Part shown: positions 21,076 to 52,080 of the stretch, piece by piece | Position numbering within the stretch: position 1 is the first letter of the stretch | Layout of the letters: each line of letters starts with the position of its first letter | Virus record (IMG/VR): IMGVR_UViG_2934470325_000001 | Span: 44,623-108,622 of that record | Origin: a virus | Taxonomy: Duplodnaviria; Caudoviricetes | DNA length: 64,000 nucleotides | Direction: 5' to 3' (one strand) | The notes under the pieces: generated by a model | Databases searched by the model: none | Told to the model about the DNA's origin: nothing | What the model saw: the letters and a program-made list of their open reading frames with translations, nothing else | Made by a program: the position numbers and the translations under genes

Positions 21076-23142
21076 CTACCTCCAAATCGGGAACACGTAG
21101 CCACGGCACCGCAACCCGCCCTCGCAGGCGTGGTAGCCGGCGACCGGGTAGGCGGCCTGCGCTTCGACGACGGTGGTGAACTCGGTGCCGTCGATGTCGC
21201 GGCACGGCCGGCAGGTGTTGGAGTCGAGTTCTTCGACAGCCCTGAACCCGGCAGGGCGCGGATCGGCGGCGTCGAGGGCGGCGAGCCGGCCCGCGTTCTG
21301 CGCTGCCGTCAGCAGGGCACCCACGTTGTCGGCCACCCAACCCCGCCTGGCGGTGGAAAGCCCGTCGAGGTGGGCGCGTACCGCGTCGGCGACCTGCCTG
21401 GGGTCGCTGCTCGGGCCTGCGTGCAGCAGCCCGGCACGTCCCGCCCCGGTCGCATATCCGGCGGCCAGAATGCCGGCCGTGGCGTGCGCGGCGGCCTCCG
21501 CCTGTTCGCGGCCCGCGCCGTCAGGAACATTGAGCGTGACACCCTGCGCGGCGGCCTCCGCTACGACCTGGGCGACCGCCCCGGCGGCGAGCGTGGAAGC
21601 CCACCCGGCCAGGAACACGCCAAGCGCCGCGACCACCGCAGCGGACACGGCCAGGGTGCCGAGCGCCCCCAGGTCGGAGTCCTCGGCCGCCACCTCAGCC
21701 TGCCCCGCCAACTCGTCCACCATCGGCTGCGCCTGCTCCGGCCATTCGGCAAGCACATCGGCGCGCGCCTGCTCCCACGCCTCCTGAACAGCGGCCGGGT
21801 CAGGTTCCGGATCGGCAGCGTTGAACAGGGAAAGCTGACCGGTGCTCTGCCTGCGCCGAGCCCTGGACCGGGGACGCACCGCTGACGGCGGTGGTGTAGC
21901 CGACGGCGGACTGGCTGGGGTCGGCGGAGGAGCCTGCTGCGTGCGCTCCGGCAGCCGATACTCGCGGCGCACCCACGCTTCCAACGCCGGATCCGCCGAC
22001 AGGGCACCCGACGTCAACAGCAGTTGCAGCGACTCGGCAGTCACCTCACGCCGCGACCCGACGCCAGACACCACCACGCGGGGCACCGGCTCGGTCTCGC
22101 CCCAGTTCCAGTCCACGATTCGGGCGGCGATCTGCCGAGTAGCCGTATCCGCGATGGCTTCACCGATCGACTCCAAGGCCAGCGTCCAAGAGTCGATGAA
22201 CGCGGACCCGAGAGCACGCGACCCGGAATCCGTCGACCCGAGGTCCATGTGCTGCATCAGCACACTGCGGCTCATCTCCTGATTCAGGAACTTGATGAAC
22301 CCGAGCGTGTCCGGCACCGACCCCGACAGTCCGATGATCTTCGCGGTGAACCCCGGTGGTGTAACCAGCCCGGCTTGGTCGCCGGCCCGCGCCGCCGACA
22401 TCATCTGCTGCGCTTCCTGCATCTGCGCAAACGATGGGACGGTGCCGGGCAGCGCCTCAGCCACCGGGACACCCGCACCCCAACGCCGGTTCGAGATGGC
22501 GTTGACCCGCAACATCTCCCGCTTGATCAACCAAGCGGCGAAGGCAGGACGCAGCAGCGACGTGCCCTGCCACGACGCGCCCTCCCGGTCGTGGCAGTAC
22601 CAGACAAGCCGGCTGGCCGGGATCTGCGGCGACTGGTCTCCCCGCATCACCAACTGGTCGATGCCCAGCAGGGCACCGGTCTTCGGGTCGGCGTGGATCT
22701 CAGCGATCGTGCCCGGGATACGTTCCGCGAGCGCGGCCAGCCGGGCACGACCATCCACGATCTCAGCGGCAACCTCGAAGCCGTAGTGGCCCCACACGAG
22801 GCACAACAGCGCCGACCGCAGATGCTCCGACCACGACAAGCCTTGCCTGCGGAACGCCGACGGCGAATCGTCGCCAGCCACATTCAAGCCCATGCAGTCC
22901 GCGACGAACCCGGTCACCTCAGGGCGGCATCCGGTGCCGTCGAGCTGCCACTGCGCCCGCCGCAGTTGGAGCGTGTACCCGCCGTAAGCCCCGGAGAGTT
23001 GGGGATCACGGCGCATCTGCGCGTACATCTCTACCGATGCCGGATAGACCAGGTCGGGAACTGTCTCGTAGACGTCGTTGACCAGCGTCCCGTACTGGCG
23101 GTCATCGACCACGCCAAGCAGTCGGGTGGGGGGCGACGCCAC
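21076..23142 (-). CDS. Portal protein (DUF935-like) fused to a MuF-like minor head domain
   Basis: GTSLLRPAFAAWLIK portal motif; C-terminal DSNTCRPC..CEGGLRCRG. Confidence 0.85.
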   Translation of the reverse strand: MASPPTRLLGVVDDRQYGTLVNDVYETVPDLVYPASVEMYAQMRRDPQLSGAYGGYTLQLRRAQWQLDGTGCRPEVTGFVADCMGLNVAGDDSPSAFRRQGLSWSEHLRSALLCLVWGHYGFEVAAEIVDGRARLAALAERIPGTIAEIHADPKTGALLGIDQLVMRGDQSPQIPASRLVWYCHDREGASWQGTSLLRPAFAAWLIKREMLRVNAISNRRWGAGVPVAEALPGTVPSFAQMQEAQQMMSAARAGDQAGLVTPPGFTAKIIGLSGSVPDTLGFIKFLNQEMSRSVLMQHMDLGSTDSGSRALGSAFIDSWTLALESIGEAIADTATRQIAARIVDWNWGETEPVPRVVVSGVGSRREVTAESLQLLLTSGALSADPALEAWVRREYRLPERTQQAPPPTPASPPSATPPPSAVRPRSRARRRQSTGQLSLFNAADPEPDPAAVQEAWEQARADVLAEWPEQAQPMVDELAGQAEVAAEDSDLGALGTLAVSAAVVAALGVFLAGWASTLAAGAVAQVVAEAAAQGVTLNVPDGAGREQAEAAAHATAGILAAGYATGAGRAGLLHAGPSSDPRQVADAVRAHLDGLSTARRGWVADNVGALLTAAQNAGRLAALDAADPRPAGFRAVEELDSNTCRPCRDIDGTEFTTVVEAQAAYPVAGYHACEGGLRCRGYVFPIWR

Positions 23143-23160
23143 GGCGACACCCCCGTCCAA

Positions 23161-35027: not shown

Positions 35028-35443
35028 CACGCGACCCCTGTCGCTTCCCGCGCCGACCCGTGCTCCTGCGCCACCCGGTGCAGAAGACCCATCCAGTTCG
35101 TCGCGTTGAACCAGTTCTTCTCGTACAGGTGGGCCGTCCACTTCACCAGTGCGTAGATCGTTTGGCACTGCCGCAGGTCAATCGAGTAGCAGCCGCAGCA
35201 GTTGTGCACGCAGCCGGCGCAATGCACCTGCCAGCGGGCCGGCTGCGGCATCAGCATCAGGCTCGCCAGGGACACCATCTCGGCGTCCCGGCTGCGGCCC
35301 TGCTCGTAGTCGGAGAACGACTTCTCGGCGGCGCTCACCGTCTGCAAGTCGATGTGGATGCACCCGGTGGTGGTTACGGCGCGACAGGTGTCGCACCGCC
35401 ACGTGATCCGTCCGGGCAGGTCGTCTGAGGGGTTCATGGTCAC
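35027..35443 (-). CDS. Cys-rich hypothetical protein
   Basis: WRCDTC..WQVHCAGC..WTAHLYEKNW. Confidence 0.7.
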   Translation of the reverse strand: MTMNPSDDLPGRITWRCDTCRAVTTTGCIHIDLQTVSAAEKSFSDYEQGRSRDAEMVSLASLMLMPQPARWQVHCAGCVHNCCGCYSIDLRQCQTIYALVKWTAHLYEKNWFNATNWMGLLHRVAQEHGSAREATGVA

Positions 35444-36804
35444 TTCCCGTCCCACTGGGCCATAGACACGAAACGGTTCAGGTGCAGTTGGGCGGCGACT
35501 TCGATGCTGCCGCGAGCCCCACCACGGTTCTTCTCGACGATCAGATCGGCCTCGCCGATCCGCTTCGTCTTGTCGAACTGCTCCTCCCGGTGCACGAAGA
35601 TCACCACGTCGGCGTGGGCTTCGATGCCGCCGGACTCCTTCAAGTCGGTGAGCACAGGCCGCTTGTCGGCGCGCTGCGCGTAGTTGCGGTTCATCTGTGC
35701 GAGCAGCACCACCGGCAGGTCCAGTTCACCGGCGAGGTTCTTCGCCGACCGGGCCAGCTCGTCGATCTGCTGGTTGCGGGGTGCCCCGCTGCGGGTTTCG
35801 ATCAGCCCGACGTAGTCGATGACGACCAGGCCGAGGTCGTGCTGCTGCTTCAACCGGCGGGCACGCACCCGAATGTCGGCCATCGTGATCCCCTTGGTCT
35901 CGTCGATCCAGAGGGGGGCTTCGCCGGTGTCACCGACCATGCGTGCGATGGCCGTCCAGTCCCGGTCGTCGAGCGTCCCGTCGGCGATCTTGTCGGAGGG
36001 CACCTGCGCCTCCGCGCACACCAGCCGGTTGAACAGTTCCTGCTTCGTCATCTCCAGCGACCACACGCCGGTCGGAACCTTGTGGTGGAACGCGGCCGAC
36101 CGGACGAAATCTCCCGCGCCGAGCGTTGACTTGCCGCCGCCCGGGATGCCGGCCACCACGTACAGGCGCTGCTTCTGCAACCCGTGGATCAGCCTGTCCA
36201 GATCCGGGAGGCCGGTGGGGATGCCCGGGGGGCCGGCCCCTTCTTCGCAGGCCCGGTCGATGGCGTCGAGGGCCGGTTCGATGATGTCCTTCCACCGTTC
36301 CGGGCCGCCCTGCCCGACCACCCGCAACCCCAGGTCGGAGATCATGTTGCGGGCCCGCTCCAACAGGTCAGCGGGGGTGCCGCCGCCGCCGGAACGCATC
36401 GTCGACCGGATGTCCGCCAGCGACGTGTCCAAGTCCCGCAGCAGCGCCTTGTCGGCGACCGTACGCGCGTAGTGGACTGCCTGCGCGGTGGAGGCGATAC
36501 CCCCGACCACAGCCACCAGCTTGTGCAGGTAAAGGGCCCCATCGGGGTCCGGCAGTTGGTGCAGCTTCCCTTCGTCGGCGAGATACCCGGCGACACTGAT
36601 CGGGTCAGTCTTTCCGCCCGACTCCCGTAGGCGACTGATCGCCGAGAAGATCACCGGGTGGGCCGGCTTGTGAAACGACCGCGCAGACAGGAACGCCTCC
36701 ACCTCGCCGATGATCAGCGGGTCGAGCAGCATCGCCCCCAACACGGCCTGCTCGGCGGGGTGGTCGTAGAAGACGGTCACCTCAGCGGCGCGATCGTCGG
36801 TCAC
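35440..36804 (-). CDS. dnaB: Replicative DNA helicase
   Basis: AEQAVLGAML N-domain, Walker A GIPGGGKS, SLEM, IDYVGL, LKESGGIEAHAD, KNRGG. Confidence 0.97.
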   Translation of the reverse strand: MTDDRAAEVTVFYDHPAEQAVLGAMLLDPLIIGEVEAFLSARSFHKPAHPVIFSAISRLRESGGKTDPISVAGYLADEGKLHQLPDPDGALYLHKLVAVVGGIASTAQAVHYARTVADKALLRDLDTSLADIRSTMRSGGGGTPADLLERARNMISDLGLRVVGQGGPERWKDIIEPALDAIDRACEEGAGPPGIPTGLPDLDRLIHGLQKQRLYVVAGIPGGGKSTLGAGDFVRSAAFHHKVPTGVWSLEMTKQELFNRLVCAEAQVPSDKIADGTLDDRDWTAIARMVGDTGEAPLWIDETKGITMADIRVRARRLKQQHDLGLVVIDYVGLIETRSGAPRNQQIDELARSAKNLAGELDLPVVLLAQMNRNYAQRADKRPVLTDLKESGGIEAHADVVIFVHREEQFDKTKRIGEADLIVEKNRGGARGSIEVAAQLHLNRFVSMAQWDGK

Positions 36805-37487
36805 TGCTGGCCTTCCTCACGACGCCGGTCGGTGCCCTTCAACGCCACCTGCACGTTCGTTGACAGGCGGGACACGACCCGCTCGTCCGCGTTGGCGCGC
36901 AACGAGCCGGCGTCCAGGTTGGTGGTGGTGATCGTCGGTAACTGCCGTGCCCACCGGGTGTCCACCAGCCGATACAGGGTGTCCTCGGTCCAGTCCGACG
37001 ACTTGCCTGCGCCCAGGTCGTCGAAGACGAGCAGATCAACGGTTTGGAAGTCCTCCAACGCGCGCAGGTGTCGGTCGTCCGGCTGGGGGCGCATGGCCGC
37101 GTTGAACTCGGGGTGGCTGGTCACCGCGTAGGTGATGCGCCGGCACCTCTTGGCGCACTCCAACGCCACCCGCCGCAGCGCCCCGAACGCCTGATGCGAC
37201 TTGCCGGTGCCGACGGGGCCGAGCAGCAGCAGGCCGGGGCAGGTTTTCGGGTCGGCGAGGTAGCGGCCGATCCACTGCCGCACCTCCGGCACATCGGGTT
37301 CGGCGTGCCGGAACCGTGGCGGCAGGATCAGGTCGAGGGTGGCGTTGGCCTGGTCGGTGAGGTGGTCGGCGAGGTTGAACGGTGCCGGTGGGGGCGCGAT
37401 GGTCGGGTCGATGCCGCGTCGGGCGAGCACGTCGCGGGCGACGGCACCGAGGTCGGTGGTGCGGATGTCCACTGGCCCTCCTTTCAC
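36801..37487 (-). CDS. DnaC/IstB-like helicase loader ATPase
   Basis: GPVGTGKS, LLVFDDLG, TTN and RVVSRL motifs. Confidence 0.92.
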   Translation of the reverse strand: MKGGPVDIRTTDLGAVARDVLARRGIDPTIAPPPAPFNLADHLTDQANATLDLILPPRFRHAEPDVPEVRQWIGRYLADPKTCPGLLLLGPVGTGKSHQAFGALRRVALECAKRCRRITYAVTSHPEFNAAMRPQPDDRHLRALEDFQTVDLLVFDDLGAGKSSDWTEDTLYRLVDTRWARQLPTITTTNLDAGSLRANADERVVSRLSTNVQVALKGTDRRREEGQQ

Positions 37488-38449
37488 AGTTTCACGTCGT
37501 AGCGGTCTTGGTTTTCGTGGCTGTTGCGCAGGATGCGGGGGTTGCTGGCACGCATCCCGCCGTTGAGGCGGCCCTGCTGGTCGCGTTCTTCTTCGGCTTC
37601 CATGCGCAGCCGCAGTTGATCGAACTTCGCGCGGAGCTTGGGAATCGAGAGAACGTTTCCCCGCCAGAACGGGTTGGTCTGCGAGAAGCGGATGACCCGG
37701 CGAATGTCTTCGAGGCTGCGCCCGTCGAGGTCGATCATCCGTCGGGCTTCAGCGCGCCATTCGTCGTTGATGGTCGGCCGCTTGCACTTGTTTTTGACGA
37801 TCCATTCGGCGAGGTAGTTGCAGACTCGGTCGACGTCTTCCCGGTACGGCTCGGCCTTCTTCGGCTTCGTTGCCCGCTTCTTCGGCTTGGTCGTTGCCTC
37901 CCCGTCGAGGGGAGGGGTGAAGGTTGGGTTGGTTGTAGAACTCTCCGTAGGAGAGTTCATAAAGAGGAGGGGCACGTCTGGCGTATCGCCTAGCGGCATG
38001 CTCCCGTATCGCCTAGCGGCATGCTCCGTATCGCCTAGCGGCATGACAGGCTCGGTCACCCGTGCCGCCTGGCGATACGCTCCATCGCCGTCCATCGCTT
38101 CGCGGGGGGCGGGGATCAACGCCTCGGGGCTGTCCTTCACAGCTCGCTTGCGCGGCGCTCGACGCGCGTTCGGATCGCCCACGAAAAGCGCGTAACCCGT
38201 CTTCGACTCGCCCTCAACAATCAGCTTGCTGACCCAGCCCGCGTCAGTCAGAGCGCGCATCCATTCGACCAGCGTGGATCGGGAGGCGCTCGTAATCTGC
38301 TCCAGCTCCGTGTAGGTCGGGGCGTGTTTTGGTGGAATCTCGGCGGTGCTGGTGTCGGTCAGCGACAGCAGCAGCATGAGGATGCCCTTGCCGGTGATGT
38401 CGATGCGCGACGCCCTCACGGCCTTCTCCACCTCCCACCGTGTGGTCAC
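37484..38449 (-). CDS. Replication initiator (lambda O-like)
   Basis: GTG at 38449 with AGGAGG; N-terminal winged helix; C-terminal FWRGNVLSIPKLRAKFDQL; carries iterons. Confidence 0.88.
   Translation of the reverse strand: MTTRWEVEKAVRASRIDITGKGILMLLLSLTDTSTAEIPPKHAPTYTELEQITSASRSTLVEWMRALTDAGWVSKLIVEGESKTGYALFVGDPNARRAPRKRAVKDSPEALIPAPREAMDGDGAYRQAARVTEPVMPLGDTEHAARRYGSMPLGDTPDVPLLFMNSPTESSTTNPTFTPPLDGEATTKPKKRATKPKKAEPYREDVDRVCNYLAEWIVKNKCKRPTINDEWRAEARRMIDLDGRSLEDIRRVIRFSQTNPFWRGNVLSIPKLRAKFDQLRLRMEAEEERDQQGRLNGGMRASNPRILRNSHENQDRYDVKL
37938..38079. repeat. Iterons / replication origin inside the initiator gene
   Basis: CGTATCGCCTAGCGGCATG at 37982, 38005 and 38027; degenerate inverted copy at 38061-38079; palindrome GAACTCTCC-GTA-GGAGAGTTC at 37938-37958. 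Confidence 0.85.
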
Positions 38450-38482
38450 AGGGGTGCCTCCTGGTTGCCTCGCGTTCGGTGC

Positions 38483-38497
38483 TGTACACACTGTACA
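38483..38497. promoter_or_regulatory. Tandem TGTACA palindromes (candidate operator) between divergent genes
   Basis: TGTACA-CAC-TGTACA in the 74-bp gap; overlaps a leftward TACAGT -10-like element. Confidence 0.6.
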
Positions 38498-38816: not shown

Positions 38817-38999
38817 TCACCGCACACCCCCGCGCCGCTTCACCACAGTCCGGTTGTGCCAATGCCCCGCACACAGGTACGGCTCCAACCGGTCGAAGTC
38901 GTGGCGCAGGTTGCCGACCTTCCCGGCAGCCAGGGCAGCGGCGATGCGGTCCCGGTAGCGGATCTTCCGGGGTGTCGGGCACACCCGAGGGGCGCTCAC
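38817..38999 (-). CDS. Small basic Cys/His protein
   Basis: CPTPRKIRY..PYLCAGHWH; GTGA-coupled. Confidence 0.65.
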   Translation of the reverse strand: MSAPRVCPTPRKIRYRDRIAAALAAGKVGNLRHDFDRLEPYLCAGHWHNRTVVKRRGGVR

Positions 39000-39640
39000 G
39001 CCGCCACCCGCTTCGACCGTCCCCGCGCTGTGCCGTTGCGGCGACGAACCGCCTGCATGATCCGGTGTCCCTCCGTGCGGCTGCCGGCCCGCTCGTTCAA
39101 CCACACCCGCGACGGGGTTTCACCCTCATGCCACAGGCGGAAAAATCGGCGGCGCACCTCTTTCATGCGGGAGGTGACCGTCCGGTAGGGGACACCAAGA
39201 AGGTTGGCGGCGGCTTGAGGGCTGCGCCCGGCGGCCATCGCAGCCACGGTCGCCTGCTGCCGTGCGGTGAGGGCGGCGAGGATCTGTCGGGTGGCGTGCC
39301 GTTCCACCACGGACGTTTCGGGGCTTGGTGTGGTGCGGGCCGCCCACTGCCAGTACATGACGTAGCGGGGTGTCTGCGAGTGCTGTCCGATGTTCCGGTC
39401 GGGAAGCCCGTGGGAGCGTCGGATGGCTGCTTCTTCGCGGAGGATGGCGCTGCGGCCGGCGGTGACAAGGTCGTGGCGGGCGGGCGGGTTGGTGGTCGTG
39501 TAGAGGTGTTCGGCGATGGCGGACCAGGCGGTGTCGTAGCGTTCGTGGAAGTCGGCGGCGCGGGCTCCGACGCCGAGGGCTGCGTCTCGGGCTGCCGTGT
39601 TGATGTCGGCGAGGGTCCAGCCGTGGCGGAGGGCGGTCAT
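38996..39640 (-). CDS. ECF sigma-factor-like protein
   Basis: SPETSVVER..LAALTARQQ..AAANLLGVPYRTVTSRMKEVRRRF (sigma4-like HTH). Confidence 0.7.
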   Translation of the reverse strand: MTALRHGWTLADINTAARDAALGVGARAADFHERYDTAWSAIAEHLYTTTNPPARHDLVTAGRSAILREEAAIRRSHGLPDRNIGQHSQTPRYVMYWQWAARTTPSPETSVVERHATRQILAALTARQQATVAAMAAGRSPQAAANLLGVPYRTVTSRMKEVRRRFFRLWHEGETPSRVWLNERAGSRTEGHRIMQAVRRRNGTARGRSKRVAA

Positions 39641-40755
39641 GCTGCGATCCCGTCGAACAGGTCGAGCTGCTGCGGGGCGGCGAGGCAGAGCGCGGCCGGC
39701 GAGGCGGCTGTGGGCCGGGTGTGGTCCCAGTCGTCACCGGTGAAACTGGCCCCGGGCAGGTCGGCGAGGTGCGGGTGGGTGCTGGCGTAGGTGGCGCGGT
39801 CGACCTTGCCGAGGAGCAGACTGTCGGCCACCCCGACGCGGGGGATCAGGTCGCGGGGAATCGTGTCCAACCGCAGCGGGCCGGTGGCGTAGCCGGCTTG
39901 GTGGGCGAGATGGGCGGCATAGACGGTGCAGCGGAGGCGTGCGACGGCGGCGGTGAGCGGGTCGATCTCGATGCCGTCCACGGACGCGACGACCCGGGGT
40001 AGGGCGTGCTGCGGGTCGATGCGGGTGCCGCCGGTCGCGGCCGGGCCCCCGACGGCTTGCCGGGGCCGGAGGGTGCCGGTGGTGTACCACTCCCACAGGT
40101 AGTCCATGGCGCGGATGAGCATGTGGCCGGTGCCGGCGGTGGGGTCGATGGTGCGGATCAACCGCTGGGTGCGGAACTCGGCGCAGGCGGGGATGAGGGT
40201 CCGGTCGAGCAGGAAGTCGCAGATCCACCACGGCGTCTGGGCGAGCGCGAACCCTTTGCGCCGCTCGTCGGTGATCGTCTGAAGGAGGTCGCCGATGAGC
40301 CAGCCGCTGATCGACGGCGGCTCGGCTGTCACCTCGTAGGCGAGGCTGGGTGCGTCGGCGGCCCACCAGTCGGCGAGTGCCTGCACCGCGTCATCTGACG
40401 GTGTGCCCTCGTGGAGGTCCGTGTTGTAGGCGGGGTGCATCAGCCACTGGGTGGCCGGGTGCACGGTGAGGTTGCCCATGGCCTGGGCGAGGGCGACGAC
40501 GGGCCGGGCGGTGCCGGTGGTGTAGCGGGCGGGCACATCGCGCAGGCCGGCGTGGAGGGTCACGTCGATCAGGTGGTGGTCTTCGGCCCAGGCGACGATC
40601 GCGGACAGGTACACCCAGGCGGCGGCGATGCGCTGCCGGCGCTGGTGCCCGTCGTGGGTTCGAGGGCCGGGAATGCTGTCGGCGAGCCGGTCGGTGTGGC
40701 GGTGCAGCGCCTTGACGAGGGGGTTGACGAAGGTGCGGTCGTCGACTGGGTTCAT
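39637..40755 (-). CDS. Truncated BREX-2 PglX-like methyltransferase homolog (SAM-binding half only)
   Basis: AAAWV..AEDHHLI, IGDLLQ..RKGFALAQTP..FLLDRTL, IDPTAGTGH, GIEIDPLTAAVARLR, VADSL; no NPPY; ends QLDLF. Confidence 0.8.
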   Translation of the reverse strand: MNPVDDRTFVNPLVKALHRHTDRLADSIPGPRTHDGHQRRQRIAAAWVYLSAIVAWAEDHHLIDVTLHAGLRDVPARYTTGTARPVVALAQAMGNLTVHPATQWLMHPAYNTDLHEGTPSDDAVQALADWWAADAPSLAYEVTAEPPSISGWLIGDLLQTITDERRKGFALAQTPWWICDFLLDRTLIPACAEFRTQRLIRTIDPTAGTGHMLIRAMDYLWEWYTTGTLRPRQAVGGPAATGGTRIDPQHALPRVVASVDGIEIDPLTAAVARLRCTVYAAHLAHQAGYATGPLRLDTIPRDLIPRVGVADSLLLGKVDRATYASTHPHLADLPGASFTGDDWDHTRPTAASPAALCLAAPQQLDLFDGIAA

Positions 40756-40782
40756 GGTGACCTCCGTCGGTGTAAGGGGTGG

Positions 40783-40816
40783 GGGTGCGGTCCGTCCACG
40801 ACGGCGGACCGCACCC
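40783..40816 (-). terminator. Hairpin upstream of the PglX-like gene
   Basis: GGGTGCGGTCCGTC-N6-GGCGGACCGCACCC. Confidence 0.6.
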
Positions 40817-40825
40817 GTGACAAAG

Positions 40826-41671
40826 TCAGGCTGCGAGGCTGTAGGTGGGTAGCGGCCGGTGTGCCAGCTCGTTGACGTAGCTGCCGGACATGCGTAGGGC
40901 GCGTTGGATGGCGGCGAGGGTCATGCCGGCCTGCTGGCCCCGGTGTACGGCGTGGTGCCGCTCCAGGCGCGTCAGGTTGGCTGGCTCGCCGCTGAGGGCT
41001 CGGCGGATGGCCTCCCAGTCGACGATCCGGGCATCGCCGGCCGGGTCCGCGTCGTAGGGGGTGCCGTCTGGGTCGTCGAGGGCGGCGTCGTCCCACGCGA
41101 GAGGCGGTGCCCACCCGTTGCGGCGGCCGGTGTTGCGGGCACGCACGTTGGTACCGGGGGTGAGGGACCACCGGTCGTACAGGTCGCAGACGGCACGATG
41201 CGTGTCGACGGTGACCATCTGCTGCTTCGCCCACGCCCACTCCCACACTGCCTGGAGTTGCTTGTCGAGTCCCCGGGCGACGGCGGTGAGGCTGTAGCCG
41301 GCGGCCACCAACGCGCGGATGCGGCGGGTGACGCCGACTGCGTGGACCATGCCGGCGGGCAGGGTGGCGGCAGGCTGCACGGCGAGAACGAGAGCAGCAG
41401 TGGTGGCGCGGATGGTCTTGCGGCGTTCGTGAACGACCGAGTAGAGGGTGCGGGGAGCAACCCCGGCGGCTCTCGCGACAGACGCGAGGGACATGCCGCT
41501 GTCGCGGAGCTGTTCGACGTGGGTGAGCACGTTCCCGACGGGTACCGGGTGCTGCCATTTGCCTTCGGCGATGAGGCGGCGTCGCCGCCGGTCGTAGTGG
41601 GAGTCGACGCGTTGGCAGCCTCGGCAGCCGGCGGTGTAGGTGCGGTGCTGTCCGCAGTTGAAGCCGGCCAT
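40826..41671 (-). CDS. Multi-HTH DNA-binding protein
   Basis: GCRGCQ N-terminus, several HTH units, RRIRALVAAGY and GWAPPLAWDD motifs common in actinophages. Confidence 0.8.
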   Translation of the reverse strand: MAGFNCGQHRTYTAGCRGCQRVDSHYDRRRRRLIAEGKWQHPVPVGNVLTHVEQLRDSGMSLASVARAAGVAPRTLYSVVHERRKTIRATTAALVLAVQPAATLPAGMVHAVGVTRRIRALVAAGYSLTAVARGLDKQLQAVWEWAWAKQQMVTVDTHRAVCDLYDRWSLTPGTNVRARNTGRRNGWAPPLAWDDAALDDPDGTPYDADPAGDARIVDWEAIRRALSGEPANLTRLERHHAVHRGQQAGMTLAAIQRALRMSGSYVNELAHRPLPTYSLAA

Positions 41672-42810
41672 CAGCGGGAGACCCGGATCGGCATGATGAG
41701 GTACCGGTAGCCGGGGACGGGCTGCCCGTCGTCTCCGGCGGGGGTGATGACGGCCGGCTTGAACGCGTTCGTGGACGCGAAGTGGGCGTCACGGCTGCCG
41801 AGCTGCTGGAGTCCTTCGGTGAGGTACTGCGGGTTGAAGCCGATGGTGAGCGGGTCACCGGTGAACGTGGCCTCCATGGCCTCGGAGGCGCGGGCGTCTT
41901 CGGTGCCGCCAGCTTCCACGATGAGGCTGTCCGGGCTGAACGACAGCAGCACGGGGGTGGCGCGGTCGGCGACGAGGGCCACCCGCTTCACGACCTCAAC
42001 CAGTGCGGCGACGGGGACGACTGCGGTGGCGGCGACCGCCTCCGGCTTCGGGAACAGCGACCGGACGGGCGGGTAGTTGGCCCCGTCGAGCAGCCGGGAG
42101 GTGGTGCGGCGGCCGTCCCGGGCGAAGCCGATCATCCCTTCGCCGGCGTTCTCCTGCGCCAACGCGATCGTGACCTCACCGCCAAGCGGGCCGAGGGCCT
42201 TCGCCGTGTCATGGAGGGTGCGCGCGGGGACGAGGGCGTTGATGTTCACGTCGGGGTTGTCCGGCGTCCACCGCATCTCCCGCACGGCCAGCCGGTACCG
42301 GTCGGTGGCGAGCAGCGCCATCGTGTTGCCGGCGAGTTCGACGCGGACGCCGGTCATCATCGGCAGCGTCTCGTCCCGGCCGGCGGCCACGGCGACCTGG
42401 GCGACGGCGGTAGCGAACGCGGCGGCGTCCACCGTCCCCGCCGGTGCCGGCATCGCCGGTAGCGCCGGGTAGTCCTCCACCGGCATCGTCGGCAGGGTGA
42501 ACCGGGCCGAGCCGCACACCAACTCCAGGTGCGCGCCGACGCTGGCGAGGCTTACCGGCTTGTGCGGTAGCGCCTTGGTGATCTCGGCGAGCAGCCGGCC
42601 CGACACGAGCACGCCGCCGGGGTCGGTGACGGTGCCGCGAACGTGCACCTCGGTCGACACCTCGTAGTCGAACGAGCTGACAGTCACCCCGTTGTCGTCG
42701 GCGATCAGTCGTACCCCGGCGAGGACGGGCACGGACGGGCGGTTCGGTAGGGCCTTCGCGGCGTCGTGAACGGCGTCGGCGAACGCGCCGCGCTCAACGG
42801 TCAGCTTCAC
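41671..42810 (-). CDS. dnaN: DNA polymerase III beta sliding clamp (phage-borne)
   Basis: RPSVPVLAGV, FDYEVS, ATDRYRL, GFNPQYL, YLIMPIR; full length. Confidence 0.97.
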   Translation of the reverse strand: MKLTVERGAFADAVHDAAKALPNRPSVPVLAGVRLIADDNGVTVSSFDYEVSTEVHVRGTVTDPGGVLVSGRLLAEITKALPHKPVSLASVGAHLELVCGSARFTLPTMPVEDYPALPAMPAPAGTVDAAAFATAVAQVAVAAGRDETLPMMTGVRVELAGNTMALLATDRYRLAVREMRWTPDNPDVNINALVPARTLHDTAKALGPLGGEVTIALAQENAGEGMIGFARDGRRTTSRLLDGANYPPVRSLFPKPEAVAATAVVPVAALVEVVKRVALVADRATPVLLSFSPDSLIVEAGGTEDARASEAMEATFTGDPLTIGFNPQYLTEGLQQLGSRDAHFASTNAFKPAVITPAGDDGQPVPGYRYLIMPIRVSR

Positions 42811-43427
42811 GGGGCGACTCCTTCGCTAGTGGTGGTCGGGGTGGTGGGCCAGGTGCGCCAGCCGATGTGGCTGCGGGATGCGACAGGGCCTCGCGGCTGC
42901 TGCTGGTAGTGGGACGCCAACCCATCCGACCCGTACGGGCGACTGGAGGCGCTGGTGAGCTGGAACAGGCAAAGCTGACCGATGCGCATGCCCGGGTGCA
43001 GCAGGATCGGCCGGGGAGCGTGGTTGACCAGCTCCAACGTGATGTGCCCGGAGAAGCCGGGATCGATGAAACCGGCCGTGATGTGTGTTGCCAGCCCGAG
43101 ACGGCCCATGCTGCTGCGGCCTTCCACGCGGGCGGCGAGGGTGGCGTCGAGGGTGATGTGCTCGACGGTGGAAGCCAGCACCATCTGGCCAGGCGCGATG
43201 AGCGCTCCCCTGTCGCTGATCTCGACGGGCATCATCGGGTTCTCGGCGGCCGGGTCGATGTAGTCGTCGACATACCAGATGTCGGGGTGACGCTCTGGCC
43301 ACATCAGCAGGTGCTGGTCGAGTCGCACGTCAATGGATGACGGCTGGATCAGGGACGGCTCGTGTGGGGTGATGCGGAGCCGGCCGGAGTCGATGGCGCT
43401 GGCAATGTCGGTGTCGGAGAGCAGCAT
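42807..43427 (-). CDS. dcd: dCTP deaminase
   Basis: MLLSDTDI, QPSSIDVRL, EGRSSMGRLGL..HITAGFIDPGFSGHITLEL. Confidence 0.95.
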   Translation of the reverse strand: MLLSDTDIASAIDSGRLRITPHEPSLIQPSSIDVRLDQHLLMWPERHPDIWYVDDYIDPAAENPMMPVEISDRGALIAPGQMVLASTVEHITLDATLAARVEGRSSMGRLGLATHITAGFIDPGFSGHITLELVNHAPRPILLHPGMRIGQLCLFQLTSASSRPYGSDGLASHYQQQPRGPVASRSHIGWRTWPTTPTTTSEGVAP

Positions 43428-44414: not shown

Positions 44415-45001
44415 GCGGCGTCGGCCCGCAGCACGCGGAGCCCGCCACGGCGCTTGACGGCGCGGCGCTCGTCCTCGGACATGCCACCCCAAACGCCGTC
44501 GTCAACCCCACCGCTAAGCGCCCACTGCAAGCACTGGTCAACGACAGGGCAGCGGCGGCAGACGGCCTTGGCCTGCTCGATCTGAGTGAGAGCCGGGCCG
44601 GACGTGCCGACGGCAAAGAACAACTCCGGGTCCTCGTCGCGGCAGATGCCACGGCTGTGGAAGTCGTCTTCGGCGGCGGGCCGGCGGATGCTCACGACGA
44701 CGCGGGGCTGTCCGGTCGGGTTGGCGGCAGGGGCCGTCGGGGCGGGCCGCACCGTCTCCGTGTTGCCGAGCGTGCCGCTGCCGCCCGGAGGGAGCCCCAG
44801 CATGTCCAGCACCTCAGCCCATGCGTGTGCGGCGGCGTGCTCGGCGTTGGGGTCGCCGTCGCGTGCCCCGAACTTGTCGGCGGCGATACCGGAGAGGACG
44901 TTGCGGGCGGCTTCCTGCTTGCGCTTCTGGTCGGCGGCGTCGGTGCCGGTGCCGCTGAGGCGGGTGGTGGCGAGCCCGCCGTCGATGCCGAGCGCGGCCA
45001 T
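44411..45001 (-). CDS. whiB: WhiB-family (WhiB1-like) Fe-S regulator with N-terminal extension
   Basis: CRDEDPELFF..AKAVCRRCPVVDQC..GVWGGMSEDERR. Confidence 0.93.
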   Translation of the reverse strand: MAALGIDGGLATTRLSGTGTDAADQKRKQEAARNVLSGIAADKFGARDGDPNAEHAAAHAWAEVLDMLGLPPGGSGTLGNTETVRPAPTAPAANPTGQPRVVVSIRRPAAEDDFHSRGICRDEDPELFFAVGTSGPALTQIEQAKAVCRRCPVVDQCLQWALSGGVDDGVWGGMSEDERRAVKRRGGLRVLRADAA

Positions 45002-49680: not shown

Positions 49681-50030
49681 CGCTCCCCAACCCCAGCCAC
49701 CGCGAACATCGCCCGCATCGACGCCCCCACCGACTGGAGCGCACGCAGCTCGTTCTCCAACGCCTTTGCCTGACGGTCCGCGTAGCGGTAGGCGGCGTCC
49801 GCGACATCCCGCGCCTCACGCTCGGCACCCGTCGCCAACTCCGCCGCGTACTTACGTTCGTGGGCAGCCCCTGGGTACGCCATGTAGGCGCGGGCAAACG
49901 CGGCGTCGTAGGCGCGGTCAGCGGCGAGGAACAGCCGGTACCGCTCGTCGCACACAGCGACGCCCTTGCCGATCCGGTTGGACACCTCACGGATCGCGTC
50001 TTCCACAGCGACCGGGTTTACGACAGTCAC
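49677..50030 (-). CDS. Helical hypothetical protein
   Basis: NPVAVEDAIRE..LRALQSVGASMR; coupled. Confidence 0.7.
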   Translation of the reverse strand: MTVVNPVAVEDAIREVSNRIGKGVAVCDERYRLFLAADRAYDAAFARAYMAYPGAAHERKYAAELATGAEREARDVADAAYRYADRQAKALENELRALQSVGASMRAMFAVAGVGER

Positions 50031-50908
50031 CGGGCACCACCGAACGGGCGGATCGGCCACTCGACGCTCACACCGTCGGCGCGCGCACGCAGGTCGGCGG
50101 CGTCCTGCGTGAGCGTGGCCCGCTCCGCGTCGTCCCCGGCACGCCCAGCCCGGTACTCCAGCTCGTTGGCCTGCCGCAGCCAGTAGGCAGCCAGCCCTTT
50201 CGCCTGCTCCGCATACCAGCCCACCTGGGCGTCGTGCAGCTCAGCGAGCGTCAGCTTCCCGAACTCCTGAAACCCGCGCACGATCCGCTCCGGGTACCGG
50301 CGGTCCCGGTAGATGTCGGCCACGCTCATGGCGTGCGACGTGGCCTGCTGGGCGCGCTGACCCAACCGGTACGCCACCCGGGCCGCAGCCAACGCGTCAG
50401 CCGTGCAGTCGTGGGCGTTGTCGATCAGCGCCCCGTAGGTGGCGCACAGGTCGGTCAGCTTCCGCTTGCCCGGCCGGTACCGGTCGAGAGCCTTGTCGAT
50501 GACCATCGGATCGATGACCGGGCTGAGCGTGGCACCGTTCAGACGGTCGGTGACGGTCGGCAGGCCGTGCCGGCGGGCTTCCCGGTCCAGCAGCGTCAGG
50601 TCGTAGGGGGCGTTCGCCACGACCAGCGGCACGCCGGCCGTGACCGCTCCGGCCAGGGCGTTGACGATCCACGCCACCTCGGCGGCCGGCGGCTTACCTT
50701 CGGCCTGCACCCGTTCGGTCGTCCAGCCGTGCACCTCGGCGGCGGCGTCGGGCACGTCCACGCCGGGGTTGATGACCGTGGAACGGATCTGCGGCGCGGC
50801 ACCCGGTTCGATCATGACGACGGCGGCGGTGACGATCCGGTCCGCCTCGACGTCCACGCCGGTCGTCTCGCAGTCGTAGGCCAGCATCGGGCCGAGATGC
50901 CAACTCAT
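50027..50908 (-). CDS. DnaQ-like (DEDDh) 3'-5' exonuclease
   Basis: DCETTG, NAPYD and AHDCTADA motifs. Confidence 0.93.
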   Translation of the reverse strand: MSWHLGPMLAYDCETTGVDVEADRIVTAAVVMIEPGAAPQIRSTVINPGVDVPDAAAEVHGWTTERVQAEGKPPAAEVAWIVNALAGAVTAGVPLVVANAPYDLTLLDREARRHGLPTVTDRLNGATLSPVIDPMVIDKALDRYRPGKRKLTDLCATYGALIDNAHDCTADALAAARVAYRLGQRAQQATSHAMSVADIYRDRRYPERIVRGFQEFGKLTLAELHDAQVGWYAEQAKGLAAYWLRQANELEYRAGRAGDDAERATLTQDAADLRARADGVSVEWPIRPFGGAR

Positions 50909-52080
50909 GCGATGGATCCCTTCTCGACCTCGACGAGGAACGCCTCCATGTCGAAGCCGTTCATCTCGTCGGACACCTTCTTGAACCGGCTGTAGATGCG
51001 CTCCTCAAGAGCCGCTGAGTTCCACTTCCGCTTCCCGGCGGCACCCTGGATTTGCACCCACAGGGCGTCCTTGTCCGGCTCGATCTCCGCGTCAACCGGC
51101 TCGCCCTGCGAGTCCGACGCGGAGACAGTCGGCGCGGCAGGATTCGCGGGATCCGACTGGGCGGCAGGGGCAAGATCCTTTGCCCGCCCCTCCAACACCT
51201 TCTTCGTCGCGTCGGTCAACGCACCGTCCCGAGCGGCGTCCTTCCAGAGGGCCTGCAACTGGGGAATGGTCTTGACCATGCCGGCCAGCCGCACCACCTC
51301 CGACTCGGTCAGCTTCTCCGAGTCCTGCGGCGTCTCCGGCGCGGCACCGATCGCGGCAAGATGCTGGGCGACCATCGCCTGCCGGGCGGCGTGGGCGATC
51401 TGCCCGCCGAACGCCTGCGCGGGAGTGACGAACTCGAAGTGCAGCACCGGCACCATGAACGTCCGCGACTCGATCTGCTCGTTCTGCGGCCGGTTCGGGT
51501 GGAACAGCTTCTTCTCCCGCAACTGCAACTCCAGGCGGGCGGGGATCGGCTGGGCGGCGGCAGCAATCGACTCGGCGAGCATCGGCAGTTCGGCGGCGGC
51601 ATTCCAGCCGTGGCTCTCAAGCTTCCAGGTGCCCAGCGACGGCACGTCGGCGAGCATCAGCGACATGCGGGTGGTCGGCTTGCACGCCTCGGCCGGCTTC
51701 AACTCCCGTCCGGCGGCGCGGGCGGCGGCACACAGGCACGCCTGCTGGCGGATCCGCTCGGTTTCCCCGTCGCACATGCGGCTGCGGAAGCCGTTGCCCC
51801 ACAGTTCGTAGTTCGGGTCGATCTGCTGCGGCGGCACCAGCACCGGAATGTTCTTCGCCTGGGTGACCACCTCGAACTGGGGTCCGGTGTTGTGCTGCCA
51901 CGGCTTCACCGCACCCCCGTACAGGGAGGCGACGGCCTCGATGAGGGTCTGTGAAGGGGAGGTGAAGCGGAGAGTTTCCAGCTTGGCCGGGTAGTTTTTA
52001 CCGCGCTGGGAGACGCGCTGCTCGCCGAGGCGGATGACACCAACCTGGGTGAGGCGACGCTGCAAGGTCTTGATGGGCAT
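50905..52080 (-). CDS. phiC31 gp3-like recombination directionality factor / recombination protein
   Basis: GVIRLG..PAKLETLRFTS..ELW..CDGE..CKPTTRMSLML..LGTWKLESHGWNAAAEL. Confidence 0.7.
   Translation of the reverse strand: MPIKTLQRRLTQVGVIRLGEQRVSQRGKNYPAKLETLRFTSPSQTLIEAVASLYGGAVKPWQHNTGPQFEVVTQAKNIPVLVPPQQIDPNYELWGNGFRSRMCDGETERIRQQACLCAAARAAGRELKPAEACKPTTRMSLMLADVPSLGTWKLESHGWNAAAELPMLAESIAAAAQPIPARLELQLREKKLFHPNRPQNEQIESRTFMVPVLHFEFVTPAQAFGGQIAHAARQAMVAQHLAAIGAAPETPQDSEKLTESEVVRLAGMVKTIPQLQALWKDAARDGALTDATKKVLEGRAKDLAPAAQSDPANPAAPTVSASDSQGEPVDAEIEPDKDALWVQIQGAAGKRKWNSAALEERIYSRFKKVSDEMNGFDMEAFLVEVEKGSIA

Follow-up and report, generated by a model that had tools for sequence, protein, structure and literature searches.

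Within a 64,000-nucleotide stretch of a provirus of the Caudoviricetes (IMG/VR record IMGVR_UViG_2934470325_000001, positions 44,623 to 108,622; hereafter the window, which makes up the right-hand 64 kb of the 108,622-bp record) we identified a gene for a 372-amino acid (aa) protein that resembles the N-terminal half of PglX, a component of type 2 bacteriophage exclusion (BREX-2, or phage growth limitation, Pgl) systems, and that ends in QLDLF, a putative beta-clamp-binding motif. Based on the conservation of this motif at the ends of its homologues, we infer that the family to which the protein belongs is likely tethered to the sliding clamp. The role that such a tether would serve is a more tentative matter. 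Our favored reading, to which we give somewhat below an even chance, is that the protein, tethered at the fork, acts against BREX-2/Pgl-type systems as a dominant-negative mimic of PglX.

The PglX-like body and its clamp-type tail

The NCBIfam model for BREX-2 PglX (NF033451) matched residues 38–320 of the 372-aa protein at model positions 54–322 of 1185 (E 8.2e-30), and the PADLOC PglX model matched it at E 1.7e-31. The NF033451 score, 103.3 bits, is below the curated cut-off of 400; a Pfam scan of the protein returned no family and PHROGs gave a weak methyltransferase match only (E 0.0028). The G+C content at third codon positions (GC3) of the gene is 0.93, and the start of the protein, MNPVDD, is kept in homologues. 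Motifs I to III of an N6-adenine methyltransferase were located in the second half of the body (Table 1). Motif IV (NPPY), sought as [NDS]PP[YFWH], is absent from the 372-aa open reading frame (ORF), whereas NPPx is present in all 35 of the full-length PglX-like relatives, mostly at positions 357–391, so that the disordered tail of the protein begins where the catalytic half would start.

An AlphaFold2 model built on 60 homologues had a mean predicted local distance difference test (pLDDT) score of 87.8 and a predicted template modeling (pTM) score of 0.86, and was confident for residues 1 to ~335. The modeled fold consists of the N-terminal domain (NTD) and the first three Rossmann strands, as compared with seven or more sheet strands in an NPPY-bearing sister form; the target-recognition domain (TRD) and C-terminal domain (CTD) are missing, the protein ending at residue 372. 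Structural matches included PacII M (Z 13.5), MmeI and DrdV, as well as E. coli BrxX and Salmonella PglX (Z 12.1–12.4), the latter two over chain residues 1 to ~500. Since motifs IV–VIII and a TRD are lacking, the body is predicted to be unable to methylate or to read DNA. Based on its score, the missing NPPY, the missing TRD and CTD, and its location outside a BREX locus, we regard the protein as a diverged paralogue of the PglX N-terminal half, as judged from sequence, and not as a PglX.

The protein terminates in ...APQQLDLFDGIAA (also quoted as ...LCLAAPQQLDLFDGIAA). Its pLDDT is below 50 at residues 339–364 and ~45 from there to the C-terminus, and the tail is therefore predicted to be disordered. 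The position of QLDLF in this tail, at the place where a catalytic half would be expected, is as described in an initial annotation of the window made from the sequence alone. The sequence QL(S/D)LF in disordered termini is the beta-clamp-binding consensus, and QLDLF itself is the strongest-binding peptide (PMC11139829). In the six-frame translation of the 108,622-bp record QL[SD]LF occurs just twice, in the tail of the 372-aa protein and in the portal protein. The second occurrence, QLSLF at 21823-21837 (-), is at residue 442 of the 694-aa portal protein (gene 21076-23160), just past the Portal_Mu domain (residues 44–403) and in an Arg/Pro-rich stretch (...RRRQSTGQLSLFNAADPEPDPA); a rough residue-frequency estimate puts the number of QL[SD]LF occurrences expected in the called proteome at ~0.02.

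A word-index search with the 372-aa protein returned 208 homologues of 204–651 aa, of which the best 120 were examined. A strict form of the motif, Q-[LIVMFP]-x-L-[FW] within the last 25 residues, was present in 50 of these, a looser form, Q-x-x-[LM]-[FWL], ended 63, and exact QLDLF was found in 32, which answers in the affirmative the question, left by the initial annotation, of whether homologues share the motif. When the last 60 residues of each protein were shuffled 500 times the mean count was 0.16 and the maximum 2, making the observed value ~300-fold enriched. The strict pattern is permissive, as it also matches the remaining ~345 residues in 19 of the 120 proteins, yet the terminal enrichment is far larger. 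The motif was seen in relatives down to 29% identity and its variants (QLSLF, QPSLF, QLGLF, QLNLF, QLSLW, and QPSLL) are, we presume, those of known clamp clients. The linker that precedes it is always hypervariable in length and sequence, and retention of a motif behind such a linker is characteristic of short linear motifs under selection.

To place the motif on a phylogeny we used the core of the protein only, with tails removed (FastTree; 117 short homologues and four PglX outgroups; Shimodaira-Hasegawa-like local support only). The motif was present in all 24 rows of the window's own clade and in every major clade of the tree. One nested clade of 37 rows (support 99) was motif-less in 36 rows and had a weak motif in the other. 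The simplest reading of this distribution is that the tail is ancestral and was lost once, with sporadic losses in addition, some of which may be shortened gene calls on short contigs. No clamp motif was found at either end of the 35 full-length PglX relatives, and we therefore rejected the possibility that the motif is a feature of PglX itself.

A terminal -AA is located 4–8 residues past the motif in many homologues: in the short family it was present in 25 of 63 motif-bearing and 6 of 57 motif-less members, and in the NPPY-bearing family described below in 41 of 55 and 3 of 65, respectively. The dipeptide presumably resembles ssrA-type ClpXP tags and may serve regulated turnover or extend a docking peptide. 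These data can also be read to mean that the tail is not a clamp motif, with QxxLF and -AA serving instead as, for example, a degron or a peptide that docks to a different partner, or that the gene is what is left of a clamp-tethered methyltransferase in decay. The co-conservation of -AA with the motif, its likeness to ssrA-type tags, and the matches of the permissive pattern within the body of some homologues are all consistent with another signal. However, QLDLF matches the clamp consensus exactly, and its position, the disordered linker, the spectrum of variants and the location in a replication module are all as expected for a clamp motif, while the constant length of the 208 homologues, the invariant residues, GC3 value and confident fold argue against decay. 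We consider this alternative unlikely.

Stepwise shortening among TRD-less relatives

The 372-aa protein is one of three grades of TRD-less, PglX-related proteins. Members of grade (i), of ~450–480 aa, keep NPPY and all later motifs, have no TRD or CTD, and end in tails such as RQLALFPA, QPPLFDLLAS, and RQLNLFDLLEIPDTAA. Those of grade (ii), of ~390 aa, keep NPPY and stop soon after it, with tails that include AQLDLF, EQLGLFPETAA, and EQLDLFTEEAPA. Proteins of grade (iii), to which the window protein belongs, end after motif III. With a grade (i) protein as query, 1275 proteins were returned at E<=1e-10, and among the best 120 of these NPPx was present in 119 and the tail motif in 41 (strict) or 55 (loose), whereas shuffled tails averaged 0.16 and never exceeded 2. 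The motif was also frequent among TRD-less members in IMG/VR contigs (seven of nine in grade (i), nine of 11 in grades (ii) and (iii), and 16 of 20 together). The versions on Streptomyces linear plasmids (434 aa, annotated "N-6 DNA methylase") are without it.

Profile-profile alignment with hhalign related the short family to the NPPY-bearing family with a probability of 100 and an E of 5e-44. The alignment paired window protein residues 8–316 with positions 13–274 of the grade (i) reference P0391 and stopped at motif III, 16 residues ahead of the NPPY of P0391 at position 290. The AlphaFold2 model of the grade (i) protein (pLDDT 87.7, pTM 0.89) has a complete Rossmann sheet and a disordered tail at residues 442–458. 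These proteins correspond to the TRD-less "Eco57I restriction-modification methylase domain-containing" proteins (~430–490 aa) of actinobacterial mobile elements, which match the window protein in the NTD and in motifs I–III; their phage-borne members, like the window protein, end in a Pro-rich tail with QxxLF and -AA. They differ in that they retain NPPY and the whole Rossmann fold, whereas the window protein stops right after motif III.

By their motif content the three grades form a truncation series in which the NTD, the lobe that binds S-adenosylmethionine (SAM) and the putative clamp hook have been kept. The progression from a full methyltransferase domain to an NPPY stub to a protein with no NPPY implies that catalysis became dispensable. 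The clamp tether probably predates the loss of catalysis, since NPPY-bearing, TRD-less PglX halves end in a tail of the identical type. Hence the window protein is probably best viewed as the most shortened grade of a series rather than as a one-off decoy.

Several other arrangements were encountered in or near this family. In two viral contigs (L016/L056 and L017/L057) an open frame has the half from NPPY to motif VIII ahead of the half with the NTD and motifs I–III (NPPY at 72, motif I at 383), which represents either a permuted gene or two adjoining half-genes. On Streptomyces linear plasmids (L045; CP109208.1 67277-72770) a 783-aa N6_Mtase-like gene and an SspB/DUF4007 homologue come after the 434-aa TRD-less, NPPY-bearing, motif-less form, an arrangement suggestive of a modification or defense system of several genes that may have given rise to the phage forms.

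Three further candidates were rejected. A split gene, with an NPPY-bearing partner elsewhere in the record, was not found: there were only three [NDS]PP[YFWH] matches, none in a methyltransferase-like ORF and two of them outside the phage. The "NPPA" of the sigma-like neighboring protein is not a remnant of NPPY, as relatives that keep NPPY have that neighbor too. Lastly, in locus L011 the sigma-like gene and the family gene seemed to be fused in one 617-aa reading frame, but this was an artefact of the frame being open further upstream; the match to the sigma-like protein is in another frame.

The replication operon and the phage-borne clamp

The gene for the 372-aa protein is part of a tightly packed minus-strand operon in the order dcd, dnaN, a helix-turn-helix (HTH) gene, the PglX-N-like gene, a sigma-like gene, an O-like initiator, a DnaC-like loader, and DnaB (Table 1). 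The window prophage is of siphovirus type, with lysis and tail genes, capsid, Mu-type portal and terminase, and a long minus-strand early/replication region; it also has a recombination directionality factor, an antirepressor, a repressor and a serine integrase that is truncated where the record ends. The prophage itself appears to occupy ~478–64000 of the window. The left 44 kb of the record (1-44622) had no phage hallmark in the 60 ORFs scanned and only DUF6205, DUF6042, GmrSD_N, and HTH_31 matches, so the record boundary seems too generous, or there is a second element at the left.

Table 1. Features of the PglX-N-like gene and of the surrounding operon (positions are those of the window)
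Feature	Position	Strand	Remarks
dCTP deaminase	42807..43427	-	likely start M86 of long ORF; stop overlaps dnaN GTG start (GTGA)
dnaN (beta sliding clamp), 379 aa	41671..42810	-	TIGR00663, 257.9 bits (cut-off 137.65); PF00712, PF02767, and PF02768 all present
281-aa multi-HTH protein (phrog_1590)	40826..41671	-	start overlaps dnaN stop by 1 nt
PglX-N-like gene, 372 aa	39637..40755	-	N-terminal helical domain, SAM-binding lobe (motifs I-III) of a gamma-class N6-adenine methyltransferase, and predicted disordered tail
Motif I, DPTAGTGH, residues 204-211	40123..40146	-	D204, G208, T209, and G210 invariant in 60 aligned homologues
Motif II region, DGIEIDP, residues 260-266	39958..39978	-	G261 invariant, E263 and D265 at least 90% conserved (60 aligned homologues)
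Motif III region, VADSLLL (ADSLL core), residues 309-315	39811..39831	-	homology to NPPY-bearing relatives stops here
Variable low-confidence linker, residues 336-362	39670..39750	-	pLDDT <50 for residues 339-364; length and sequence hypervariable among homologues
QLDLF, residues 363-367, putative beta-clamp-binding motif	39655..39669	-	5 residues from C-terminus; exact consensus match
C-terminal DGIAA	39640..39654	-	terminal -AA co-conserved with motif
214-aa sigma-region-4-like HTH protein	38996..39640	-	ATG overlaps PglX-N-like stop (ATGA)
O-like initiator	37484-38491	-	replication module (35440..38491)
DnaC/IstB-like loader	36801-37487	-	replication module
DnaB helicase	35440-36804	-	replication module

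The full-length dnaN is two genes upstream of the PglX-N-like gene, with one gene (40826-41671) between them and a gap of 916 bp. Its product matched the solved mycobacterial clamp 8DJ6 at E 1e-109 and is 75% identical to the chromosomal DnaN of Micromonospora (range 74–76%), which makes a Micromonospora or a close relative the most likely host. In a DnaN phylogeny the phage-type sequences formed a clade of nine rows (support 100) on a stem of 0.25, nested among chromosomal Micromonospora clamps that differ by just 0.01–0.05, which indicates that the phage dnaN is a captured host gene that has been evolving faster. Twenty-four alignment columns separate phage-type from chromosomal DnaN, 17 of them in residues 3–90 (domain I) and none in segments 169–175, 245–254, and 368–377, which, going by the structures of the E. 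coli and mycobacterial clamps, we take to form the peptide pocket. The changes in domain I might alter dimer pairing or contacts with the loader rather than client binding.

The initial annotation had described this dnaN as full-length, host-like and ~1 kb from the PglX-like gene in a phage with no polymerase gene, all of which we confirmed. PolA, PolB, and Pol III alpha families were sought in six frames across the whole 108.6-kb record and none was found, nor did a Pfam scan of 124 ORFs from the record detect any of the three. A 293-aa RNase_T/DnaQ-like exonuclease adjoins a Gp3-like recombination directionality factor (50027-50908 (-) and 50905-52080 (-)), and the phage thus appears to bring a clamp and a proofreading-type exonuclease without a polymerase.

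Two other expectations of that annotation were not supported, namely that dnaN and the PglX-like gene form a module and that a full host-like dnaN in a temperate phage with no polymerase gene is notable by itself. The first is at odds with the finding of dnaN no more than 8 kb from the family gene in only two of 11 close viral loci (L002 and L008) and in only two of 13 whole related viral records. On this basis we rejected dnaN as an obligatory partner, and most carriers of the family would have to use the host clamp. As to the second, 65 phage records, 53 of them of Arthrobacter and eight of Mycobacterium phages, already have an annotated beta clamp that matches at E<=1e-20. The clamps of these phages are likewise three-domain DnaN proteins from siphoviruses, but they are at most 49% identical to the window copy, which nests in chromosomal Micromonospora DnaN.

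Gene contexts were drawn from 50 loci. The neighbor downstream in the window, the 214-aa protein, has weak sigma-70 region-4 and region-2-like signals, and a gene of this type adjoins the family gene, on either side, in 10 of 24 motif-bearing loci but in none of the 11 loci examined from the motif-less clade. Directly after the family gene, one related viral contig (L003; 8968-10422 (+)) has a homologue of DpdA (7-deazaguanine DNA modification; E 6e-86), a DNA-modification or anti-restriction neighborhood. Searches by tblastn with the window protein and with a grade (i) relative against 50,697 records of isolated phages gave no match, and the 372-aa family is so far known from prophages and metagenomes alone.

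Possible roles at the fork and comparison with known systems

According to our favored reading, the product of the gene would be a catalytically dead N-terminal half of PglX, made from the phage replication operon and joined by its disordered linker to the clamp peptide QLDLF. The tail would dock in the peptide pocket of the sliding clamp, that of the host and, in this phage, of its own DnaN as well, and the docked protein would ride on replicating phage DNA. There it would offer the N-terminal and SAM-lobe surfaces on which PglX relies in the multi-protein BREX/Pgl complex, with no reading or methylation of DNA, and by acting as a dominant-negative PglX would blunt BREX-2/Pgl-type immunity where phage DNA is made. 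This reading is based on the fact that a body with no catalysis keeps its NTD and SAM lobe under strong selection, and on the suspected role of the NTD in contacts of the BREX complex: BREX function requires a BrxB-C-X-Z complex, and the NTD has been proposed to mediate protein contacts (PMC11842806). A more extended version, in which BREX-2/Pgl immunity acts or is decided at the replication fork, temperate actinobacterial phages counter it with a PglX N-half bolted to the clamp via the QxxLF tail so as to keep PglX from assembling into a working complex on newly made phage DNA, and -AA adds ClpXP-type control of turnover, is in our view rather doubtful.

The distribution of BREX-2 among hosts was compared with a background of 151 sampled genomes at the level of the taxonomic family, as the genus level had only two genomes. 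Thirty of the 151 have a full BREX-2 PglX (above cut-off), and such systems are therefore common in the host family. A full PglX was present in seven of 10 genomes with the motif-less clade, never adjacent to the family gene, and this co-occurrence is indirect evidence for a link to BREX-2. The neighbors of this clade are DUF4192, DprA-like, Lsr2, GGDEF, ComM-like, transposase and tyrosine-recombinase genes, which make its setting that of an island or integrative element and not of a phage.

A number of these and the preceding observations weigh against a PglX mimic. The co-occurrence in seven of 10 genomes may be partly a phylogenetic artefact, and a full BREX-2 PglX was found in only one of eight hosts of motif-bearing prophages, which is no enrichment and lends no support to a host-by-host match. 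The short family shares just ~35% identity with full-length PglX and has a long branch in the tree, so it is not a fresh copy of the PglX of any host and mimicry of a particular host complex is uncertain. The co-conservation of -AA with the motif means that the tail holds more than a clamp motif. Finally, the SAM-binding residues are strongly conserved, which a pure decoy would not need, and the existence of NPPY-bearing sisters with the same tail suggests that the family originally served to methylate DNA at the fork.

The last two points also speak for an alternative in which the protein is a non-catalytic partner in protective methylation. The clamp-tethered, SAM-binding N-half would pair, in the manner of HsdM and by way of its dimerization-type N-terminal domain, with a complete methyltransferase (host PglX or another) and bring that enzyme to nascent phage DNA, which would thus be marked as self. 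In addition to the invariant or nearly invariant SAM-lobe residues and the sister forms with a complete Rossmann fold, this would be consistent with the second N6_Mtase-like gene that adjoins the plasmid forms and with the comparison of the PglX NTD to the dimerization domain of M.EcoKI (bioRxiv 10.1101/2025.10.09.681413). However, no methyltransferase family was detected in the 124 scanned ORFs of the record, the phage has no NPPY-bearing partner, and most hosts of motif-bearing prophages are without a full PglX. A half Rossmann fold, moreover, has no known role as an activator. For these reasons we judge a role in protective methylation to have a low probability.

The translational coupling of the gene to its sigma-like neighbor raises the possibility of replication-coupled transcription, in which the two proteins would switch on middle or late genes on replicating DNA. 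Phage T4 gp45, gp33, and gp55 are a precedent for clamp-coupled transcription. A second is the clamp-dependent MuC of phage Mu, which needs its clamp-binding motif for late transcription (10.1101/2025.01.04.631326). The ATGA overlap of the two genes, the sigma-region signals of the 214-aa protein and the occurrence of its gene beside motif-bearing but not motif-less-clade members are as would be expected of such a pair. Yet the neighbor is missing from 14 of the 24 motif-bearing loci, the sigma-like assignments are all under curated cut-offs, and the PglX ancestry and conserved SAM lobe are left unexplained, making this role improbable. Blockade of the clamp, in which the tail fills the peptide pockets of the host clamp and diverts or stops host replication and repair with the PglX-like body as a stable carrier, is highly improbable despite the strongest-affinity consensus peptide of the tail, the precedent of clamp-targeting phage proteins such as Twort Gp168 (both PMC11139829) and the early or replication-module position of the gene, because the phage's own DnaN, with its unchanged pocket segments, would be blocked too, and because a carrier has no need for a 335-residue body under strong purifying selection at its SAM-lobe residues.

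The dominant-negative PglX mimic, if it is one, would be a natural case of counter-defense by a shortened copy of a defense protein. Type 2 (Pgl) was the first BREX-type system described and is, to our knowledge, the least understood of the BREX types. A widespread phage family that keeps the PglX NTD and SAM lobe on the clamp would point to the surfaces of PglX that matter, and a clamp-tied PglX N-half suggests that the contest with BREX is fought on replicating DNA. Should the role of the protein differ, the family would still be a new, well-conserved phage client of the clamp.

The window protein can be compared with other known systems. With BREX-2 PglX (NF033451) and its solved relatives (BrxX/PglX 8C45, 8Q56, and 9EWZ) it shares the N-terminal helical domain and methyltransferase motifs I–III (E 8e-30; Z ~12), but it is encoded in a phage replication operon rather than in a BREX locus with PglZ, PglY, and PglW, and it has a clamp motif where the full-length relatives have none. 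The proposed target pathway is the same as that of the known anti-BREX proteins, T7 Ocr, T3 SAM lyase and ICP1 OrbA, and Ocr acts on BrxX/PglX (PMC7261183, PMC11842806). These proteins have no sequence or fold relation to the window protein, Ocr being a DNA mimic and the T3 SAM lyase an enzyme, and in the literature surveyed none of the three is a PglX fragment or is described with a clamp motif.

Known clamp clients (Pol II, Pol IV, Hda, and others, and MuC of phage Mu) have, like the window protein, a QL(S/D)LF-type motif in a disordered terminus. None is methyltransferase-like or defense-related in the literature surveyed, and the window protein, if its proposed role is correct, would be the first such client of a bacterial clamp in that literature. 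A parallel for a clamp-linked methyltransferase exists in the eukaryotic DNMT1-PCNA pair. Our limited survey of publications on PglX and the clamp, on anti-BREX phage proteins and on methyltransferases with clamp motifs found no clamp-tethered PglX fragment and no methyltransferase with a bacterial clamp motif. Clamp clients, counter-defense by mimicry and phage-borne clamps are all kinds already known, and what is new here is a PglX N-terminal half with a putative tether to the clamp.

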